In this document: positions 2,557 to 11,213 of the stretch, piece after piece
Numbering within the stretch: position 1 is the stretch's first letter
Layout: the number at the start of each line of letters is the position of its first letter
Source: a virus
Lineage: Duplodnaviria; Heunggongvirae; Uroviricota; Caudoviricetes
Length of the DNA: 11,213 nucleotides
Direction: 5' to 3' (one strand)
Virus record (IMG/VR): IMGVR_UViG_2711768073_000011
Notes under the pieces: model-generated
Seen by the model: only the letters and a program-made list of their open reading frames with translations
Database searches by the model: none
What the model was told of the DNA's origin: nothing
Position numbers and translations under genes: made by a program

Positions 2557-2974
2557 TAACGAAGCACGCACGCTGAAAAACTGGCATCACGACACGGGGA
2601 AATACGGGCGAACCATTACCGGGTGGGATGAGGATAAAAACAATATCCGCACGTTTTACCGGGATGACATCGACCGTTTTCTGGAAATACGCACCCGGCG
2701 CATCAACCAGGACAGCACAAAGCGCGTCCCCATGTTCGTAAAACTGCGCACCGCCCGCTACCTGAAAGCCCGTGCAGATGCTTCCGGTGTGACGGTGGGT
2801 TACAGCGGCGTGGCCGCACGTATTGCCCGCGTTCATCAGTTCGGTGAGCGCGATCAGGTTGCGCCGGGCATTTTCACCGATTACCCGGTACGTGAGCTGC
2901 TGGGTATCAGCCAGGCAGATGAGCGCCTGATTTATAACACGGTGCTGGGCCGGATTGCGGAGGCTGTACGGTGA
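2557..2974 (+). CDS. S: S-like gene, 5'-truncated fragment (divergent middle copy)
   Basis: Resumes S in frame at the equivalent of position 1816 straight after the N gap and ends at the same GTGA junction. Four synonymous differences from copy 1 lie near its 3' end. Confidence 0.65.
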
Positions 2975-3552
2975 GCGCAGAACTCATGCGACTGCTGAGC
3001 AATATCATCCGCACCGGGATCATCTCTGAAGTTGATGAGAAGTCCTGGCGCGTGCGCGTTCGCAGCGGCGAACTGGAAACAGGCTGGTTGCGCTGGAACA
3101 CCACGCGCGCGGGAGCCTTCAATGTGTGGCTGCCGCCATCACCCGGCGAACAGGTGGTAATTGCCTGCATTGGCGGCAACCCGGAAACCGCCATGATAAT
3201 TGGCAGCCTGTGGAGTGATGCCAATCCGGCCCCCGGCAAAAGCCTGAAAGAAATCGTGGTCAGCGCGCCGGATGGCGCGGTGTTCCGCTACGACGCAGAC
3301 GCTGGCGCACTGAGCGCCAGCGGCATGAAAACAGCCACCCTGCAGGCATCCGTCAGCGTGACACTGGATACGCCCGTCGTGGAATGCACAAACCTTCTGA
3401 GAACAGCGACGCTTGACGTCACAAAAGGGGGAAAGATGAGCGGCAATATCACGCACAGCGGCGGCGATTTCACCTCAAACGGCATCACAGTGCATACGCA
3501 TAAGCACGGTGGCGTTAAAGGTGGCAGCGATTCGACAGGAGGCCCGCAGTGA
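2971..3552 (+). CDS. V: baseplate spike protein (P2 gpV-like), divergent middle copy
   Basis: 193-aa ORF with a GTG start. The C-terminal region is Gly/Ser/Thr-rich and carries the motif VHTHKHGG, the His-x-His pattern found at the apex of gpV-type spikes. Differs from the copy at 4066 by C27R, N/D and D/N substitutions. Confidence 0.85.
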   Translation: MSAELMRLLSNIIRTGIISEVDEKSWRVRVRSGELETGWLRWNTTRAGAFNVWLPPSPGEQVVIACIGGNPETAMIIGSLWSDANPAPGKSLKEIVVSAPDGAVFRYDADAGALSASGMKTATLQASVSVTLDTPVVECTNLLRTATLDVTKGGKMSGNITHSGGDFTSNGITVHTHKHGGVKGGSDSTGGPQ

Positions 3553-3899
3553 CAACCCGCTACACAGGAATGAACCCGGACGGAACGGGAAACCTGAACG
3601 ATATGGAGCACCTGAAACAGTCAGTCAGGGACATCCTGACCACCCCGCTGGCCAGCCGGGTTATGCGACGGGAATATGGCAGCCTTGTGCCTGATTTGAT
3701 TGACGAACCCATGAATAACACCACGCGTCTGCAATGCATGAGTGCTGCCGTGATTGCGCTGACACGATGGGAACCCCGCATTGCCCTGGACGCCATCGAC
3801 GTTGTCTGGAAGGCAGGAGGCCGCGCCGGGGTGACGCTGTCGGGCACTGTCATGCAGACCATGCAGAATGTTGAATTAACCATCACGCTGAGGGAGTAA
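3549..3899 (+). CDS. W: baseplate wedge protein (P2 gpW / GPW-gp25 family), divergent middle copy
   Basis: 116-aa ORF (MTTRYTGMNPDG...) with GTG start overlapping the V stop (GTGA). Size and position match P2 gpW. Confidence 0.85.
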   Translation: MTTRYTGMNPDGTGNLNDMEHLKQSVRDILTTPLASRVMRREYGSLVPDLIDEPMNNTTRLQCMSAAVIALTRWEPRIALDAIDVVWKAGGRAGVTLSGTVMQTMQNVELTITLRE

Positions 3900-3902
3900 A
3901 TC

Positions 3903-4009
3903 ATGCCTGCCGTTGACCTTTCACAGTTACCGGACCCCGCCATCATCGCGGAGCCTGACTTTGAGGCAATTCTGGCTGACACAAAGGCCATGATGATTGC
4001 GTCCTATCC
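3903..4009 (+). CDS. J: baseplate protein J (P2 gpJ-like), 5' fragment truncated by the N gap
   Basis: ATG at 3903 preceded by GAGGGAG; reads MPAVDLSQLPDPAIIAEPDFEAILADTKAMMIASY before the N run. Same as the start of the complete J at 4998. Confidence 0.65.
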
Positions 4010-4019
4010 NNNNNNNNNN
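4010..4019. other. assembly gap (10 N)
   Basis: Run of n characters lying exactly at the junction between duplicated blocks. Confidence 0.97.
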
Positions 4020-4069
4020 GCCTGATTTATAACACGGTGCTGGGCCGGATTGCGGAGGCTGTACGGTGA
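4020..4069 (+). CDS. S: S-like gene, 3'-terminal fragment after the gap
   Basis: Last 16 codons of S (...LIYNTVLGRIAEAVR*) in frame, ending in the GTGA overlap with V. Identical to copy 1. Confidence 0.5.
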
Positions 4070-4647
4070 GCGCAGAACTCATGCGACTGCTGAGCAACAT
4101 CATCCGCACTGGGATCATCTCTGAAGTTGATGAGAAGTCCTGGTGCGTGCGCGTTCGCAGCGGCGAACTGGAAACAGGCTGGTTGCGCTGGAACACCACG
4201 CGCGCGGGAGCCTTCAATGTGTGGCTGCCGCCATCACCCGGCGAACAGGTGGTAATTGCCTGCATTGGCGGCAACCCGGAAACCGCCATGATAATTGGCA
4301 GCCTGTGGAGTGATGCCAATCCGGCCCCCGGCAAAAGCCTGAAAGAAATCGTGGTCAGCGCGCCGGATGGCGCGGTGTTCCGCTACGACGCGGACGCAGG
4401 CGCACTGAGCGCCAGCGGCATGAAAACGGCCACCCTGCAGGCATCCGTCAGTGTGACACTGGACACGCCCGTCGTGGAATGCACAGACCTTCTGAGAACG
4501 GCGACGCTTGACGTCACAAAAGGGGGAAAGATGAGCGGCAATATCACGCACAGCGGCGGCAATTTCACCTCAAACGGCATCACAGTGCATACGCATAAAC
4601 ACGGTGGCGTTAAAGGTGGCAGCGATTCGACAGGAGGCCCGCAGTGA
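4066..4647 (+). CDS. V: baseplate spike protein (P2 gpV-like)
   Basis: 193-aa ORF with GTG start. Its first 105 codons are identical to copy 1 at 2230. Carries the same VHTHKHGG apex motif. Confidence 0.88.
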   Translation: MSAELMRLLSNIIRTGIISEVDEKSWCVRVRSGELETGWLRWNTTRAGAFNVWLPPSPGEQVVIACIGGNPETAMIIGSLWSDANPAPGKSLKEIVVSAPDGAVFRYDADAGALSASGMKTATLQASVSVTLDTPVVECTDLLRTATLDVTKGGKMSGNITHSGGNFTSNGITVHTHKHGGVKGGSDSTGGPQ

Positions 4648-4994
4648 CAACCCGCTACACAGGAATGAACCCGGACGGAACGGGAAACCTGAACGATATG
4701 GAGCATCTGAAACAGTCAGTCAGGGACATCCTGACCACCCCGCTGGCAAGCCGGGTTATGCGACGGGAATATGGCAGCCTTGTGCCCGATTTAATTGACG
4801 AACCCATGAATAACACCACTCGTCTGCAATGCATGAGTGCTGCCGTGATTGCGCTGACACGATGGGAACCCCGCATTGCCCTGGACGCCATCGACGTTGT
4901 CTGGAAGGCAGGAGGCCGCGCCGGGGTGACGCTGTCGGGCACTGTCATGCAGACCATGCAGAATGTTGAATTAACCATCACGCTGAGGGAGTAA
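4644..4994 (+). CDS. W: baseplate wedge protein (P2 gpW / GPW-gp25 family)
   Basis: 116-aa ORF with GTGA overlap to V. The protein is the same as the middle copy; differences are synonymous. Confidence 0.88.
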   Translation: MTTRYTGMNPDGTGNLNDMEHLKQSVRDILTTPLASRVMRREYGSLVPDLIDEPMNNTTRLQCMSAAVIALTRWEPRIALDAIDVVWKAGGRAGVTLSGTVMQTMQNVELTITLRE

Positions 4995-4997
4995 ATC

Positions 4998-5894
4998 ATG
5001 CCTGCCGTTGACCTTTCACAGTTACCGGACCCCGCCATCATCGCGGAGCCTGACTTTGAGGCAATTCTGGCTGACACAAAGGCCATGATGATTGCGTCCT
5101 ATCCCGCCGAACAGCGTGAAGCCGTTTCCGCCGCGCTGGAGCTGGAATCGGAACCCCTTAACGTTATCGCTCAAACCATGTCGTTTCGTGAAATGCTGTT
5201 ACGCCAGCGGGTCAATGAGGGTGCACGCGCCTGCATGCTAAGCCACAGCGCCGGGACAGACCTGGACAACCTCGCGGGCAATATGAACACAAAGCGCCTG
5301 GTTATCACTCCGGCAACGGATACCACCGACGCAGTGATTGAAAGTGACACCTCGCTGAGACTACGGGCGCAACGGGCATATGACGGTCTGAGTGTTGCTG
5401 GCCCGTCAGGTGCATACGAGTATTTTGCACGCAGCGCCAGCGGTCTGGTACGCGATGCGCGGGCCATCAGCCCGTCTCCGGCCAACGTGACGGTTTCCAT
5501 CCTGTCCACTGAGGGCGACGGCACAGCAACGGAGGCGTTGCTTAATACCGTTCGCGCCGTTCTGAATGCAGAGGATACCCGCCCGGTGGCCGACCGCCTG
5601 ACCGTACAGAGCGCCAGCATCGTGACATGGCGGCTGAATGCAAAACTGTACTTTTACCCCGGTCCGGAATCCGAACCTATTCTGGCCGCGGCGGAATCGT
5701 CATTCAGGAAGTGGCTGGCTGAACAGGGGCTTATCGGTCAGGACGTGGCGTTGTCCGCCATTGCTGCCGCACTTCATGTACACGGCGTGCAACGCGTGGA
5801 GATAATCGAACCCACACAGAATATGGCCATCAGCGACATACAGGCGGCGCGCTGTGAGTCATTCACCATCAGCGAAGGTGGGCGTAATGAGTAA
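4998..5894 (+). CDS. J: baseplate assembly protein J (P2 gpJ-like)
   Basis: 298-aa ORF with a GAGGGAG Shine-Dalgarno. Size and position after W match P2 gpJ. Its stop overlaps the start of I. Confidence 0.9.
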   Translation: MPAVDLSQLPDPAIIAEPDFEAILADTKAMMIASYPAEQREAVSAALELESEPLNVIAQTMSFREMLLRQRVNEGARACMLSHSAGTDLDNLAGNMNTKRLVITPATDTTDAVIESDTSLRLRAQRAYDGLSVAGPSGAYEYFARSASGLVRDARAISPSPANVTVSILSTEGDGTATEALLNTVRAVLNAEDTRPVADRLTVQSASIVTWRLNAKLYFYPGPESEPILAAAESSFRKWLAEQGLIGQDVALSAIAAALHVHGVQRVEIIEPTQNMAISDIQAARCESFTISEGGRNE

Positions 5895-6417
5895 TTCACT
5901 GTTACCGCCATCAGCCAGCAATTTCATGCGTTGTGCCGAAGCTGTCGGAACGCGCATTACAGACATCCCGGTAGACCTCAACACGCTGTGGTCGCCGGAC
6001 ACCTGCCCGGTGCACCTGCTGCCTTATCTCGCCTGGGCATTTTCCGTTGACCGCTGGGATCGCAACTGGCCGGAAGAGACAAAACGACAGGTGATTCGTG
6101 ATGCATGGCTGATACACCGACACAAGGGAACCATCAGCGCACTGCGCCGGGCCATTGAGCCGCTGGGATACCTCATTCGTGTGTCTGAGTGGTGGGAGTT
6201 CGGCGGAGAACCGGGAACATTTACCGTTGAAGTGGGCACGCTGGACAGTGGCGTGACGGAGGAAATGTATCTGGAAATGGAGCGGTTGATTGCTGATGCC
6301 CGCCCGGTCAGCCGCCACATGACAGGGCTGAATATCATTCAGGAGATTCCGGGGGATATTTTCGCGGCGGCAGCAACTTACGACGGTGAAGTCATTACCA
6401 TTTATCCGGACGATTAA
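5887..6417 (+). CDS. I: tail / baseplate protein I (P2 gpI-like)
   Basis: ATG at 5887 (MSNSLLPPSASNF...) overlapping the J stop, giving 176 aa. The ORF track's longer form from 5854 is an upstream extension inside J. Confidence 0.85.
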   Translation: MSNSLLPPSASNFMRCAEAVGTRITDIPVDLNTLWSPDTCPVHLLPYLAWAFSVDRWDRNWPEETKRQVIRDAWLIHRHKGTISALRRAIEPLGYLIRVSEWWEFGGEPGTFTVEVGTLDSGVTEEMYLEMERLIADARPVSRHMTGLNIIQEIPGDIFAAAATYDGEVITIYPDD

Positions 6418-6419
6418 GC

Positions 6420-9011
6420 ATGAGTACCACAACACGAAAATTTAAAACCGTTATCACCGATACGGGTGCAAAAAAATTAGCTCAGGCAGCCGCGCCAGAT
6501 GGTAAGCCTGTCCGCCTGACTCATATGGCCGTGGGCGACGGTGGCGGCACGTTGCCCACACCAGACAGTAAGCAGACCCGTCTGGTGCATGAGGTGTGGC
6601 GACATACTGTTAATCGCGTCATCCTGGACGCAACACATCAGAACCGCATTATTGCGGAGCTGGTTATTCCTCCTGAAACGGGCGGATTCTGGATCCGGGA
6701 AATTGGTGTATTTGATGAGCACGGCGATTTGATCGCGGTGGGCAATACTGCGGAAAGTTACAAGCCAGCCGTTGCCGAAGGATCCGGACGTGTACAAACA
6801 TTTCGCACCATTCTGACCGTATCCAGCACTGCCACCGTGGCGCTTACCGTGGATAACACCATGGTTATGGCCACAGTGGATTACGTGAATGACAAACTGA
6901 AAGAACATGAACAGTCACGACGTCACCCGGACGCCTCGCTGACCGCAAAAGGCTTTGTTCAACTCAGTAGCGCCACCAACAGCACGTCTGAAACACTGGC
7001 CGCAACGCCGAAAGCGGTAAAGGCCGCGTATGACCTTGCTAACGGGAAATATACCGCACAGGACGCCACCATAGCGCGAAAAGGCCTTGTCCAGCTCAGT
7101 AGTGCCACCAACAGCACGTCTGAAACGCTCGCCGCAACGCCGAAAGCGGTAAAGGCAGCATATGACCTTGCTAACGGGAAATACACTGCACAGGACGCCA
7201 CCACAACGCGAAAAGGCCTTGTCCAGCTCAGTAGTGCCACCAACAGTGATTCTGAAACGCTTGCGGCAACGCCAAAGGCGGTAAAGGCAGCATATGACCT
7301 TGCTAACGGGAAATACACTGCACAGGACGCCACCACAGCGCGAAAAGGTCTTGTCCAGCTCAGTAGCGCCACCAACAGCACGTCTGAAGCATTGGCCGCA
7401 ACACCGAAAGCGGTAAAGGCCGCGTATGACCTTGCTAACGGGAAATACACTGCACAGGACGCCACCACAGCGCGAAAAGGTCTTGTCCAGCTCAGTAGCG
7501 TCACCAACAGCGATTCTGAAACGCTTGCGGCAACGCCAAAGGCGGTAAAGGCCGCGTATAACCTTGCTAACGGGAAATACACTGCACAGGATGCCACTAC
7601 AGCGCGAAAAGGTCTTGTCCAGCTCAGTAGCGCCACCAACAGTGATTCTGAAACGCTGGCCGCAACATCAAAAGCGGTGAAGTCTGCCTATGACAATGCT
7701 GAAAAACGTCTTCAGAAAGATCAGAACGGTGCGGATATTCCGGGAAAGGATACCTTCACGAAAAATATCGGTGCCTGTCGTGCTTATAGCGGCGCTTTGA
7801 GCACTGAAGCCGGAAACTGGACAACCGCTCAGTTTATTGAATGGCTGGATTCCCGTGGTGCATTTAATCATCCGTACTGGATGTGCAAAGGCTCATGGTC
7901 ATATGCAAATAACAAAATCATTACGGATACCGGATGTGGTGATATCCACCTGGCTGGTTGTGTCGTCGAGGTCATGGGAACTAAATCTGCAATCACTATC
8001 CGAGTAACCACGCCGACAACATCAAGTGGTGGCGGTACAACCAGCGCACAATTCACTTACATTAATCATGGGGACGGCTACTCCCCCGGCTGGCGTCGTG
8101 ACTGGAATCGTCAGGGCGACTCAATGACCGGAACGATTAATCAGGATGGCGGAAGCCAGAATGCCTATATGTCTACGGCCTTATGTTCAGGCACCAGAGG
8201 CGGCAAAAAATATCTCAGAAAGTTTCGTGGTGGAGAAGGAGATACTATCTGGCATGAAACAGTACAGGGCGGGGTAATTCGCTGGGCGACAGGAAACTAT
8301 GACGCTCAGGAAGAATTATCACTCAGCTCCGCTTATGGTCTCCGTTCAAGAGGTGAGATTACATCACTCAGTGCTAATGGTCTGCGCATTGCTTATGGCA
8401 ATTATGGATTCTTTATCAGGAATGATGGCGGCAGCACATATTTAATGCTGACGGCCTCTGGCGATAAATTTGGGACATGGAACGGCTTAAGACCGCTGAC
8501 TATCAATAACGCCAATGGCGGAGTGTCAATGGGGCATGGCCTGAGTGTTACAGGTGATATTGTCTCAAGTACCAAAGTACGTGCCGGTAGCGGGAAAAAG
8601 TTCACGGTCAGCAGCAGCAATACATCAACGAAGGAAGCCGCATTCAATTTGTGGGGAAACGCAAGTCGTCCTGTGGTGGCTGAATTAGGTGATGATGCAG
8701 GCTGGCATTTTTACAGTCAGAGAAATACAGATAACAGCATCACTTTTGCTGTTAACGGGCAGGTATCACCATCTAACTATGGCAACTTTGATTCACGCTA
8801 TGTCCGGGATATTAGACTTGGTGGCGCGTCATCCTATAAACCAGCAAATAACGGTACAACATGGACGCATCAGGCTCCATCTGGTTGCGTATATACCGGG
8901 ATTATCGTTCAGGATACAGGCTCAAACTCTGCCGATAATATTGGTGGTGTTTATTACAGACCAATTCAAAAAAATATTAATGGTACATGGTATAACGTAT
9001 CGAGTGTTTGA
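6420..9011 (+). CDS. H: tail fibre protein (P2 gpH-like) with an internal tandem repeat array
   Basis: 863-aa ORF. The N-terminal ~170 aa (MSTTTRKFKTVITDTGAKKLAQAAAP...HMAVGDGGG...IIAELVIPPE...EHEQSRRHPDASLTAKGF) matches what I recall of the conserved gpH N-terminal domain. It is followed by six 44-aa repeats and a Gly/Asn/Ser/Thr-rich distal region. Confidence 0.9.
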   Translation: MSTTTRKFKTVITDTGAKKLAQAAAPDGKPVRLTHMAVGDGGGTLPTPDSKQTRLVHEVWRHTVNRVILDATHQNRIIAELVIPPETGGFWIREIGVFDEHGDLIAVGNTAESYKPAVAEGSGRVQTFRTILTVSSTATVALTVDNTMVMATVDYVNDKLKEHEQSRRHPDASLTAKGFVQLSSATNSTSETLAATPKAVKAAYDLANGKYTAQDATIARKGLVQLSSATNSTSETLAATPKAVKAAYDLANGKYTAQDATTTRKGLVQLSSATNSDSETLAATPKAVKAAYDLANGKYTAQDATTARKGLVQLSSATNSTSEALAATPKAVKAAYDLANGKYTAQDATTARKGLVQLSSVTNSDSETLAATPKAVKAAYNLANGKYTAQDATTARKGLVQLSSATNSDSETLAATSKAVKSAYDNAEKRLQKDQNGADIPGKDTFTKNIGACRAYSGALSTEAGNWTTAQFIEWLDSRGAFNHPYWMCKGSWSYANNKIITDTGCGDIHLAGCVVEVMGTKSAITIRVTTPTTSSGGGTTSAQFTYINHGDGYSPGWRRDWNRQGDSMTGTINQDGGSQNAYMSTALCSGTRGGKKYLRKFRGGEGDTIWHETVQGGVIRWATGNYDAQEELSLSSAYGLRSRGEITSLSANGLRIAYGNYGFFIRNDGGSTYLMLTASGDKFGTWNGLRPLTINNANGGVSMGHGLSVTGDIVSSTKVRAGSGKKFTVSSSNTSTKEAAFNLWGNASRPVVAELGDDAGWHFYSQRNTDNSITFAVNGQVSPSNYGNFDSRYVRDIRLGGASSYKPANNGTTWTHQAPSGCVYTGIIVQDTGSNSADNIGGVYYRPIQKNINGTWYNVSSV
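6948..7700 (+). repeat. six tandem in-frame 132-bp repeats (44-aa KGLVQLSSATNS[TD]SETLAATPKAVKAAYDLANGKYTAQDATTAR units) inside H
   Basis: Unit starts at 6948, 7080, 7212, 7344, 7476 and 7608; the last unit decays after about 30 codons. The units are near-identical at protein level with scattered nucleotide differences. They resemble the short repeat motif known from phage tail fibres. Confidence 0.9.
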
Positions 9012-9013
9012 TT

Positions 9014-9547
9014 ATGATGCATTTAAAAAATATAAAACCGGGCAATCCAAAAACAAAAGAACAGTACCTGTTAACTAAAAACTCCGGCGTTGTCTGGTTA
9101 TTCGCTGAAGATGGTAAAAACTGGTATGAGGAACAAAAGAACTTTCAGCCAGACACCATAAAGATTGCATATGATGAAAATAATGTCATATGCGACGTGC
9201 AAACGGATGTAACTGCAATTTGCCCGGAAGGAAAAAGTGTTGTCGAGTTGCCTAATATTACAGCAAACCGACGCGCTGATATTTCAGGTAACTGGATGTT
9301 TAAAGATGGCTCAGTCATTAAACGTGTGTATACCGAAGAAGAGCAACGCTTGCAGGCTGAAAACCAGAAACAAAGGTTATTACAGCAGGCCAGAGAAAAA
9401 ACGCAGTTCTGGCAGACCCAGCTTGCATTAGGGATTATCAGTGATTCAGATAAGCAACAACTGATGCGCTGGATGCGGTACGTGCAACAAGTTGAGACCA
9501 CTGATACCACTGAATTACCCGTTACGTTCCCTGATCAACCAGAATAA
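9014..9547 (+). CDS. G: tail fibre assembly protein / chaperone (P2 gpG / Tfa family)
   Basis: ORF directly after H; the ATG at 9014 (or 9017) lies just after the H stop at 9009-9011, and the ORF track's TTG at 9008 is less likely. About 177 aa. The position and the Q/E-rich C-terminal part (QFWQTQLALGIISDSDKQQLMRWMRYVQQVE) are typical of Tfa proteins. Confidence 0.8.
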   Translation: MMHLKNIKPGNPKTKEQYLLTKNSGVVWLFAEDGKNWYEEQKNFQPDTIKIAYDENNVICDVQTDVTAICPEGKSVVELPNITANRRADISGNWMFKDGSVIKRVYTEEEQRLQAENQKQRLLQQAREKTQFWQTQLALGIISDSDKQQLMRWMRYVQQVETTDTTELPVTFPDQPE

Positions 9548-9551
9548 ACGA

Positions 9552-9590
9552 AAGGCCCGAATATCGGGCCTTATCGTTATTTCTGTTTAT
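9552..9590 (+). terminator. rho-independent terminator after G (possibly bidirectional)
   Basis: Stem aaggcccg (9552-9559) / cgggcctt (9565-9572) with loop aatat, followed by the T-rich tract atcgttatttctgtttat. It sits in the 68-bp gap between the convergent G and U genes. Confidence 0.6.
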
Positions 9591-9615
9591 CTAACTATTT
9601 GTGATTTGCGTTAAA

Positions 9616-10110
9616 TCAGAACAGTCCCTTAACAGAACTGACCGCACTGTTAAGGGATGACGCCACCTTATCTTTGAAGCCGGACAGCATATCGCTGAAC
9701 GATGAGGATTGCAGGCGCTCCCGCAAATCCTCATCACAGCGTTCAAGGGTCAGTGAAAATTCTATCTTTTTCGCCTTACCGTAGCGATCAAACTCGGAAC
9801 GGGTCGTATTCGTTCCGGTCAGGACATACATGCCGTAAATCTGCCCGACGCCATCAATCAGAGGCCAGGGGCGTCCTGTATACGCCTGCGTGGTCAGCAG
9901 CGACAGCGACACTTCGCCACCTGTAATTTCAGGATAAAGCACACCAGAAAGAACGATGCGATCATCACCTGCACCGATATACTGCCATCTTGCTGAACGG
10001 TTAACGCGTTCATTTTTTACATGCCGCCAGCTTTTGTTTTGCTGTAACTGCTGATGCGGCAATGTGCGCAGCTCAAAAACAAACATGCCGTAGATCATCA
10101 TCATGGCCAT
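9616..10110 (-). CDS. U: tail protein U (P2 gpU-like)
   Basis: 164-aa ORF on the - strand (MAMMMIYGMFVFELRTLPHQQ...GVLYPEITGG...WPLIDGVGQIYGMYV...KIEFSLTLERCDE). Motifs and size match my recollection of gpU, and it lies immediately after the tape measure gene on the same strand. Confidence 0.8.
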   Translation of the reverse strand: MAMMMIYGMFVFELRTLPHQQLQQNKSWRHVKNERVNRSARWQYIGAGDDRIVLSGVLYPEITGGEVSLSLLTTQAYTGRPWPLIDGVGQIYGMYVLTGTNTTRSEFDRYGKAKKIEFSLTLERCDEDLRERLQSSSFSDMLSGFKDKVASSLNSAVSSVKGLF

Positions 10111-10116
10111 GACTCC

Positions 10117-11213
10117 TCAATCTTTATCGTAAAAACTGCCACGCCCGGCACGGGTACGCCGATCCAGTTCTGCCCTGACCATTTCACCGACCAGTTTCGC
10201 CAGTTCGCGGGGATTCTGCGTAACAACGTTATGCAGATGAACATGAATTTCACCGCAAAATCCGGAGACAGCAGGCTCCCGGTTACGGGAAGTTGCAGGA
10301 ACTGATGCCACTGGCGATCGTATGGCCTCCGCCACCGGGCGGGAGCTGGCCGCAACAACAGGGACCAGCGCCGGAGGCAGCGGAGCCGGGACCACAGGTG
10401 TGATGTTGATTGCGGAAGCAGGCTTACTGACCTGCGCAATCTTCCGCTCCTGCCACTCCCCACGAACAGCAAGTGCGCGGGGCAGGTTCTTAAAGACAAT
10501 ATCGCCAGGGCCAATGCGTTTTTTCGTCTCATCAACCAGCTTACCTGTGTTATCAGCAATTTTGCTGAGTCTGCGTAGCGTCCCGGTATTGCTGTCTGTG
10601 AGCGGTTTGTTGTCTTTGGGTTTATCACCTCCGGTGCCATTGCCATTTTCCACAGGCTTCGGCGGATTGATTTTCGCAAGGTCCCCCTGAAGCAAGGCAA
10701 CCTTGTCCTGAAGAATGGCCGCACGCTGTGCGTCTTCGATTTTCTTGCGCGCCTTTTCCGCTTCATCCGGAAGGACGCCAAGTTTTTCAAGTATCCACGC
10801 CAGCGTATCCAGTAGCATTTTTGCAGGTGTCAGAACAAGTTGTAACGCACCGCCAAGAACGTTACCGAATATCTCGCCAGCACTGGTACATTTATCCAGC
10901 GTTTCCTTGCTGGACTCCATCGGTGACAGCAGCGATTTAAACCAGTTAAACACCTGGCTGATCCCGCTTCCGATTGCGTCAAAAACAGGACCAAACCGTT
11001 CAAAGGTTTCGCGCAACGGGGTCAGCCTTTCCATAATCCCGCTGAACACCCCGACAAAAAATGCCCTGATGGGATCCCAGTATTTCCAGATAAGAACGGC
11101 AGCTCCGGCAAGCGCAGCCACGATAAGACCAACCGGACTGATCAGCGCCCCGATAGCGCCTCCCAGTAAAGAAACGGAACCCGTCACCATTCCCCATAGT
11201 GCTGGCAGGACCC
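10117..11213 (-). CDS. T: tail tape measure protein (P2 gpT-like), C-terminal part; 5' end outside the window
   Basis: The - strand reading frame is open to the window edge; the ORF track's Met at 11190 is internal. It contains a hydrophobic stretch (GAIGALISPVGLIVAALAGAAVLIW) and charged, probably coiled regions typical of tape measure proteins, and lies directly upstream of U. Confidence 0.75.
   Translation of the reverse strand, partial: VLPALWGMVTGSVSLLGGAIGALISPVGLIVAALAGAAVLIWKYWDPIRAFFVGVFSGIMERLTPLRETFERFGPVFDAIGSGISQVFNWFKSLLSPMESSKETLDKCTSAGEIFGNVLGGALQLVLTPAKMLLDTLAWILEKLGVLPDEAEKARKKIEDAQRAAILQDKVALLQGDLAKINPPKPVENGNGTGGDKPKDNKPLTDSNTGTLRRLSKIADNTGKLVDETKKRIGPGDIVFKNLPRALAVRGEWQERKIAQVSKPASAINITPVVPAPLPPALVPVVAASSRPVAEAIRSPVASVPATSRNREPAVSGFCGEIHVHLHNVVTQNPRELAKLVGEMVRAELDRRTRAGRGSFYDKD

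Follow-up and report, generated by a model that had tools for sequence, protein, structure and literature searches.

The 'phage tail fibre repeat' (Pfam PF03406, Phage_fiber_2; InterPro IPR005068) is a known fibre module. P2 gpH (AF063097, 669 aa) carries two units, and the most frequent number among 150 family representatives is one. One of the architectures described for EHEC prophage fibres also includes a PF03406 unit (PMC3368898). A 2021 survey placed the family among repeat families without known structure (PMC8078820). In the PDB its sequence matches are confined to Mu S entries, each with a single unit, and the Mu cryo-EM paper states modelling only of 'the N-terminus' for gp49. A literature search found no specific report that P2-like fibres vary in their number of these repeats. 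Here, a run of six units is described in a fibre gene of the window, the complete 11,213-nucleotide stretch of IMG/VR record IMGVR_UViG_2711768073_000011 that was analyzed.

Architecture of the fibre gene

By its sequence, the window is classed as an E. coli P2-like prophage and its fibre as gpH-type. The PF12571 collar domain is present, and the baseplate operon has the P2-like order V, W, J, I, H, Tfa, as read from Pfam matches for J, I, and Tfa, the annotation of a collinear complete genome, and the genes called in six other assemblies. The fibre gene follows gpI (5854-6417) and precedes the tail fibre assembly gene, and NZ_CP087578.1, which is 99.9% identical, labels it 'tail fiber protein'. 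The features referred to below are as follows.

6420-9011, plus strand: gpH-type tail fibre gene, 863 aa (ORF translation; PF12571, six PF03406 matches, PF21446)
6420-6947, plus strand: N-terminal baseplate-attachment ('tail-collar fibre') region, aa 1-176 (PF12571 at aa 6-153, E=6.3e-54)
6948-7079, plus strand: repeat unit u1 (KGFVQLSS...ATIAR), full 44 aa
7080-7211, plus strand: repeat unit u2, full 44 aa
7212-7343, plus strand: repeat unit u3, full 44 aa; recombined with u6 in the three-unit allele of strain CH468
7344-7475, plus strand: repeat unit u4, full 44 aa; present as three identical copies in the eight-unit allele L001
7476-7607, plus strand: repeat unit u5, full 44 aa
7608-7694, plus strand: repeat unit u6, terminal and partial; first ~28 codons conserved, 81-87% nucleotide identity to u1-u5
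7682-7700, plus strand: main mosaic junction, where DNA homology to the fibre gene stops in 55 of 80 relatives sharing the N-terminus
7695-8103, plus strand: first distal module, like the variable part of phage Mu S' (aa 425-578 against residues 177-332 of PDB 8ju3, i-Evalue 1.8e-69)
8104-9011, plus strand: distal receptor-binding part (Gp34_trimer domain at aa 631-695; Mu S-like tip)
9008-9547, plus strand: tail fibre assembly protein, Tfa/gpG-like (PF02413, E=2.5e-33)

The gene resembles that of P2 gpH in its collar domain, in the start of the motif (DASLTAKGF.QLSS), and in the gene order J-I-H-G. It differs in having six units rather than two, and in a distal receptor-binding part that is unrelated past the array. 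Its first ~76 codons are of the P88/Xuanwuvirus type, not the P2 type, and P2-type phages match only nucleotides 229-1275 of the gene.

Tandem Repeats Finder reports a single array at 6947-7694 (period 132, 5.7 copies, 89% matches, 0 indels, score 1132). Read in frame with the ORF 6420-9011, positions 6948-7694 comprise five complete 132-nt units of 44 aa and a partial sixth, beyond which (past ~7694) the sequence is unrelated and forms a Mu S-like linker. PF03406 matches six stretches of the protein (374.2 bits, E=1.1e-114; gathering cut-off 22 bits), each of the six units aligning over nearly the full length of the 42-position model, and a purpose-built HMM places them at aa 173-212, 217-256, 261-300, 305-344, 349-388, and 393-432. 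The original observation of a six-fold array of 44-residue repeats is thereby confirmed, with the units being five full and one partial rather than six equal ones. Residue variation also extends beyond the T/D, T/A, A/V, P/S, and D/N exchanges first listed, to F/L in u1, I/T and T/A in the ...ATxxR tail, and A/S in u6. Two other candidate features were set aside. A Pfam TPR_20 match in the fibre (24.7 bits, below the cut-off of 25) was taken as spurious, and an antisense ORF at 6959-7639 (226 aa), matching no family at threshold, was read as a shadow ORF of the repeat because it shares its codon wobble positions with the plus frame.

The N-terminal region is 95-100% identical in ~65 of 80 IMG/VR loci. 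Downstream of the main junction, homology breaks a second time at 8103, where 13 of the 80 relatives stop (gene nucleotide 1684). The change in base composition first noted at the end of the array was confirmed in moderate form, GC content falling from 0.549 in the array to 0.489 over 7695-8103, and the homology boundary lies at the same place. The fibre tip (8701-9011) has a GC content of 0.415, and Tfa is similarly low (0.413).

An invertible distal segment of the Mu/P1 G or C type was considered and rejected, as the next genes 3' of Tfa are gpU (9616-10110, minus strand) and then the tape-measure C-terminus. No convincing inverted repeat was found bracketing the distal fibre part. One pair, 6912-6947 and 8069-8104, adjoins the beginning of the array and the breakpoint at 8103; its exact core is 11 nt, and it was judged a chance occurrence because by our own estimate ~3 such cores are expected per 5.2 kb. 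Inverted Tfa and fibre fragments are present in the relative P88_4B11.

Reality and age of the six-unit array

Assembly error was raised at the outset as a hazard for repeats of this kind, and the window is a scaffolded draft in which overlapping contigs have been joined across N-gaps (2546-2556 and 4010-4019), falsely duplicating upstream genes. The contig that holds the array, however, has no gaps and runs collinear with NZ_CP087578.1 (30 mismatches over 7194 nt). The units of the array show 9-19 differences per 132 positions, and no exact repeat within it is longer than 76 nt. Identical DNA is found in GCA_030001295.1, and five further assemblies show just two or three mismatches. The identical 863-aa protein is encoded on 12 contigs from other assemblies, and the 2592-bp gene occurs as a single uninterrupted stretch in 12 complete E. 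coli genomes. A wrongly expanded or collapsed array is thus extremely improbable as the source of the count, and the assembler risk for this allele is low. Breakage of short-read contigs at the array was also discounted, only ~4 of 25 truncated database proteins starting or ending in or at it.

The repeat DNA is less uniform than the near-identity originally described. Units u1-u5 are 86-93% identical, and 18 of the 27 variable columns among units fall at codon position 3. Between units, pS is 0.28 and pN 0.043 (pN/pS 0.15), with pS ranging from 0.17 to 0.41 among u1-u5. Each unit is under purifying selection, and this level of DNA identity and synonymous divergence identifies the units as old duplicates whose synonymous sites have since diverged.

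Copy number was compared among homologues, using censuses drawn largely from short-read draft assemblies, in which arrays of identical units are possibly under-counted. Three units is the mode among 62 close relatives and also in fibres with a matching distal module. The motif is accordingly few-copy in gpH-type fibres, as originally stated, with modes of one to three, and six is high, about twice the usual number. It is not the extreme, since fibres with seven and eight copies also exist and related prophages span one to eight. As anticipated, the number varies between close relatives: alleles whose flanks are at least 99% identical have two, three, four, five, six, or eight units. A given distal module is found with one, two, three, four, five, six, and eight units, and more than one copy number occurs in 6 of the 14 distal-module clusters having more than one member. 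Copy number is independent of distal type.

The arrays of individual relatives reveal how these differences arose. In strain CH468 the order is u1, u2, and a u3/u6 hybrid, with the crossover within unit nucleotides 12-50, and the flanks show 0 differences from the window in 528 positions and 1 in 1272. Relative L085 has a u1/u5 hybrid followed by u6, and L083, with equal flanks, has four units; L084 has five. The eight-unit allele L001 (IMGVR_UViG_2609459857_000006) reads 1-2-3-4-4-4-5-6, a count that rests on a 340-nt exact repeat, its three identical units being beyond the resolution of short reads. The hybrid junction units are the product of in-register unequal recombination, which has occurred repeatedly in this prophage lineage. 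With a unit of 132 nt (44 codons), such exchange gains or loses whole modules and leaves the frame intact. All alleles of two to eight units keep one open frame, which sets the array apart from a contingency (phase-variable) locus.

These observations bear directly on the first interpretation of the locus, in which six copies arose by recent expansion from an ancestor with one to three, and near-identical DNA makes the array unstable. Most relatives do have one to three copies, and recent expansion exists in one of them, L001, with its three identical u4 units. For the six-unit form, in contrast, u1-u5 differ by the synonymous distances given above, yet the flanks of three-, five-, six-, and eight-unit alleles differ by 0.5% or less, and the u3/u6 hybrid derives the three-unit allele from the six-unit form by deletion. 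With between-unit synonymous divergence of ~0.28, six copies are an old state of the lineage rather than a fresh expansion, and the first interpretation is very unlikely to be correct.

Proposed role of the repeat shaft

The account we favor, and consider highly probable, is that the array is a translated run of six PF03406 modules forming the proximal shaft of a trimeric fibre of the P2 gpH type, and that it changes by in-register unequal recombination. The shaft would sit between the baseplate-attachment domain and the Mu S/S'-like receptor-binding part. As a gpH-type fibre it would be borne on the baseplate and require Tfa for its assembly. Each unit may be an autonomous trimeric shaft segment, in which case copy number would set shaft length, and six units would add 132 residues per chain relative to the common three-unit form of 731 aa. 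Lengthening of the shaft by six copies is plausible, and shaft length may affect the reach of the fibre to its receptor. The last unit provides the conserved patch at which differing distal receptor-binding modules join. A single-sequence AlphaFold2 model of aa 151-467 gave an all-helix output of low confidence (mean pLDDT 49) and was set aside.

It is quite possible, if somewhat short of probable, that the length polymorphism is selectively neutral, the modules having to fold while their number is without effect on infection. The range of unit numbers found with one distal module is consistent with this, as is the occurrence of several distal types each with more than one copy number. Copy-number distributions nevertheless have a clear peak, at three units both for this distal module and for close relatives, which hints at a preferred length; by analogy only, small-domain duplications in the T4 adhesin, said to alter host range, also speak against neutrality. 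Alternatively, the repeats might act chiefly as DNA homology patches for swapping distal receptor-binding modules, the number of units being incidental. In the 55 relatives noted above, homology is lost exactly where the last unit ends; the repeat DNA is ~85% identical to lambdoid 'prophage tail fiber N-terminal domain' genes (H129-H131); and Mu S carries its one unit directly before its variable part. A single unit would suffice for this purpose, however, and the pN/pS of 0.15 indicates that the units are constrained as protein. As the chief function of the array, homology-directed swapping is tenable but doubtful; it is complementary to the shaft-module account, not exclusive of it.

It is interesting to speculate that unit number serves as a fast-evolving length adjuster, in-register unequal recombination shifting fibres within the range of one to eight modules independently of the tip and tuning reach through O-antigen or capsule layers that differ in depth, with synonymous divergence maintained because it limits array instability. 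We regard this extension of the shaft-module account as unlikely.

Comparison with known fibre systems

Close parallels to the window fibre lie in Mu S and S' (gp49 and gp51; PDB 5yvq, 9ki1, 8ju3). The last unit and linker align with Mu S residues 97-180, aa 425-578 match the variable part of S', and aa 641-862 match the S tip; the Mu Tfa chaperone likewise belongs to PF02413, as does the assembly protein here. Mu S differs in having a single PF03406 unit, and the window is without an invertible G-segment.

Fibres of EHEC lambdoid prophages (collagen-like, PCoil; PMC3368898) are comparable in having a trimeric shaft of short repeats that differs by whole repeats. Their repeats, however, are Gly-X-Y triplets and heptads as opposed to a 44-residue module, and they belong to another phage family.

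In practical terms, for annotating and engineering such phages, the P2-like proximal shaft is modular in 44-residue steps, with one to eight modules tolerated with one receptor-binding tip. The end of the last module is a natural splice point for distal exchange, useful in the design of chimeric fibres or tailocins. Where prophages are otherwise identical, genes that differ in length by a multiple of 132 bp are to be taken in comparative genomics as real alleles and not as errors.

Duplicating a small domain of gp37, the T4 fibre adhesin, reportedly expands host range, a finding attributed to Tetart et al. in 1996. The window array is similar to that case as an in-frame tandem duplication of a fibre segment through recombination between short homologies. 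In T4, though, the duplication lies in the receptor-binding tip and its phenotype was shown, whereas the window repeats lie in the proximal shaft. Public databases already contain both the PF03406 family and this exact protein, and the array represents an ordinary length polymorphism in a known module. It is the same in kind as the described phage tail fibre repeat, and unusual only in its six consecutive units against a mode of one to three.

The repeat array and the fibre gene

The repeat array is enclosed by a plus-strand ORF of 863 codons (6420–9011) encoding a tail fibre. Tandem Repeats Finder detects one array only in the window (6947–7694; period 132, 5.7 copies, 89% matches, no indels, score 1132), with units that begin in frame at residues 177, 221, 265, 309, 353, and 397:

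6948–7079, plus strand, u1: complete 44-residue unit
7080–7211, plus strand, u2: complete 44-residue unit
7212–7343, plus strand, u3: complete 44-residue unit
7344–7475, plus strand, u4: complete 44-residue unit
7476–7607, plus strand, u5: complete 44-residue unit
from 7608, plus strand, u6: motif kept for about 28 residues, then different sequence

The complete units u1–u5 follow the pattern KGLVQLSSATNS[TD]SETLAATPKAVKAAYDLANGKYTAQDATTAR. Among themselves they are 86–93% identical in DNA and 89–95% in protein, of 27 variable columns 18 fall at the third position of a codon, and pooled pS and pN between units (Nei-Gojobori counts) are 0.28 and 0.043 (pN/pS 0.15). The units are therefore translated, constrained at the protein level, and products of old rather than recent duplication; the near-identity of their DNA claimed in the original prediction does not hold. 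A minus-strand ORF (6959–7639) was rejected as a gene: it has no family match above threshold, its wobble positions fall on those of the plus frame, and it is a shadow of the repeat. Within the array, the window and GCA_030001295.1 depart from the remaining six-unit alleles compared (those of five additional assemblies and of strain OSUCMP42NDM) solely at 7223 and 7235. Both changes are synonymous and turn u3 to the u2 state, a pattern resembling a short tract of gene conversion between neighboring units.

Pfam places PF12571 (tail-collar fibre N-terminus) at aa 6–153, PF03406 (Phage_fiber_2, "phage tail fibre repeat") in six stretches (E=1.1e-114), and PF21446 (Gp34_trimer) at aa 631–695. By the defining test of PF03406 the array belongs to that family, and by sequence and context the gene encodes a P2 gpH-type fibre; it does not qualify as a Mu-type invertible fibre. 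Baseplate J and I genes lie upstream and a gene for a PF02413 tail fibre assembly protein (Tfa) downstream. The gene is 99.9% identical to that of the "tail fiber protein" of strain OSUCMP42NDM, around which P2-type head, lysis, baseplate, and tail genes are annotated. The window is an E. coli P2-like (Peduoviridae) prophage. A GC-rich hairpin (9533–9591; GAAAGGCCCGA / TCGGGCCTT) between the Tfa gene and the convergent minus-strand gpU gene probably acts as a terminator in both directions.

The attachment domain is separated from the receptor-binding part by six PF03406 modules, all translated and constrained. Each module would be a self-contained segment of a trimeric shaft, so that module number would set shaft length; with six units each chain would be 132 residues longer than in the common 731-aa form, and the tip's reach to its receptor may depend on shaft length. 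A single-sequence AlphaFold model is of low confidence, and in the PDB the motif is found in Mu S only. A 2021 survey lists PF03406 among repeat families without known structure (PMC8078820). A single PF03406 unit in an EHEC prophage protein, viewed by rotary-shadowing, was tentatively read as a globular knob flanked by two stalks (PMC3368898).

Reliability of the six-unit count and its rank among relatives

The window is a scaffolded draft with runs of N at 2546–2556 and 4010–4019. The contigs joined there have overlaps of 730 and 1085 nt (98.4–99% identity), giving apparent duplications (1816–2545 = 2557–3286; 2925–4009 = 4020–5104), so that three genes, those for S (virion morphogenesis protein), baseplate V, and baseplate W, are seen twice. 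A real duplication was rejected because the second copies are absent from all close complete genomes and from six other assemblies, where the genes are single. In the close complete genomes, 4583 nt correspond to 6419 nt of the window. The duplications are a scaffolding artefact, possibly arising from a strain that carried two similar prophages.

The fibre gene lies within the gap-free stretch 4020–11213, which is collinear with NZ_CP087578.1 (30 mismatches in 7194 nt). The exact 863-aa protein occurs on 12 contigs of a public collection, and the 2592-bp gene is found as a single uninterrupted match in 12 complete E. coli genomes; GCA_030001295.1 has the gene without a single DNA difference, and five other assemblies show 2–3 mismatches. 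The longest exact repeat within the array is 76 nt and is therefore spanned by ordinary short reads. These observations make the collapse or expansion by assemblers, raised in the original prediction, unlikely for this allele, and we consider the count of six to be sound.

Canonical P2 gpH (AF063097, 669 aa) has two units, and five isolated P2-like phages have three or four. Among 150 proteins, each representing a 50%-identity cluster and together having the closest N-terminal domains, 0 units were counted in 5, 1 in 90, 2 in 37, 3 in 13, 4 in 3, and 5 and 7 in one each; 62 complete IMG/VR fibre genes picked by N-terminal domain only (mostly 95–100% identical) have 0 units in 1, 1 in 7, 2 in 16, 3 in 25, 4 in 10, and 5, 7, and 8 in one each; and of the 120 database proteins closest to the distal part of the window's fibre, about 83 have three (728 or 731 aa), about 24 two, and a few one or four. 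Many sequences across these samples are from short-read drafts, in which arrays with identical units are possibly under-counted. The original prediction that the motif is low-copy in gpH-type fibres and that six is high is borne out, with two units in P2 gpH and mostly one to three in relatives. By these distributions six is about twice the usual number and within the top few per cent, but it is neither the maximum, as arrays of seven and eight exist, nor rare in absolute terms. The seven units of P0249, a distant family representative (629 aa, 53% N-terminal identity), lie closer together, about 39 residues apart; in this protein the motif would have expanded independently.

Module number changes by unequal recombination

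More than one copy number is present within 6 of the 14 distal-module clusters with more than one member. Alleles with flanks almost identical to those of the window differ only in whole units. The three-unit allele of strain CH468 has no mismatch to the window in 528 nt before the array and one in 1272 nt after it, and consists of u1, u2, and a hybrid that equals u3 up to nt 50 and u6 from nt 13 to its end; it is a clean 396-bp deletion by crossover within nt 12–50. Strain Z142-6 has five units (u1–u4 and a u6-like terminal unit). Strains C7 and C3 agree in their flanks and have four and two, respectively, the first unit of C3 being a u1/u5-type hybrid. An IMG/VR relative (IMGVR_UViG_2609459857_000006, fibre 4001–6856) has eight (u1-u2-u3-u4-u4-u4-u5-u6). 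Its three u4 copies are without any difference and are a recent gain; the count of eight is less certain, because the 340-nt exact repeat is beyond short-read resolution. As anticipated, copy number differs between related prophages (2, 3, 4, 5, 6, and 8 units between near-identical flanks), and it changes by unequal, in-register homologous recombination.

Divergence among u3–u5 far exceeds flank divergence among these alleles; within this lineage the six-unit form is therefore the older one and gave rise to the shorter alleles. Together with the deletion form in CH468, this speaks against six copies as a fresh expansion. A phase-variable locus or on/off switch was rejected, since every change preserves the reading frame; the polymorphism is therefore one of length. 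A literature search for copy-number polymorphism of this repeat found no describing paper, and such polymorphism is what repeats of this kind would be expected to show. Public databases already contain the family, the gene, and this exact protein; added here are the allelic series of 2–8 units and the mapping of a mosaic junction to the last unit.

The array end and comparison with known fibres

When the fibre gene was compared by BLAST with 80 loci that share its N-terminus, homology stopped at gene nt 1263–1281 (counted from 6420; window 7682–7700) in 55, at 1684 (window 8103) in 13, and at 1330 in four; only two matched over the full length. In P2-type phages the match is limited to gene nt 229–1275. 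GC content steps from 0.549 in the array to 0.489 (7695–8103), 0.487 (8104–8700), 0.415 in the tip, and 0.413 in the Tfa gene, so the composition change noted at the array end is correct. The terminal unit is an exchange point at which distal receptor-binding modules from other sources are attached. Haggard-Ljungquist et al. in 1992 and Sandmeier in 1994 reportedly described the mosaic nature of these fibres. The junction fits this long-known mosaicism. A gpH mosaic in L-413C is summarised in PMC7460101.

The distal part (7695–9011) is itself mosaic: Mu S'-like to 8103, followed by the Gp34_trimer domain and a Mu S-like tip whose low GC is common to the Tfa gene. Within the repeat, some 210 nt (gene nt 529–740) match, at about 85% DNA identity, three E. 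coli lambdoid genes annotated "prophage tail fiber N-terminal domain-containing protein"; the module is thus common to unrelated phage families at the DNA level. An inverted repeat (6912–6947 / 8069–8104; 36 nt, 72% complementary, 11-nt exact core) has one arm adjoining the start of the array and the other adjoining the second breakpoint in homology; it was judged a chance occurrence, with about three such cores expected in 5.2 kb. In the relative P88_4B11 the Tfa gene is followed by fragments of Tfa and fibre genes in inverted orientation, which suggests an invertible segment there that is absent from the window's prophage.

In P2, tail genes follow H and G in the same direction, whereas here the U, T, E/E', tube, and sheath genes are on the opposite strand (window 9616–11190; 10197–15772 in locus L081). 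In comparison with solved fragments of the Mu fibres, aa 425–578 of the window's fibre match the S' variable part (8ju3) and aa 641–862 the S tip (5yvq), and Mu S residues 97–180 align with the last repeat unit and linker.
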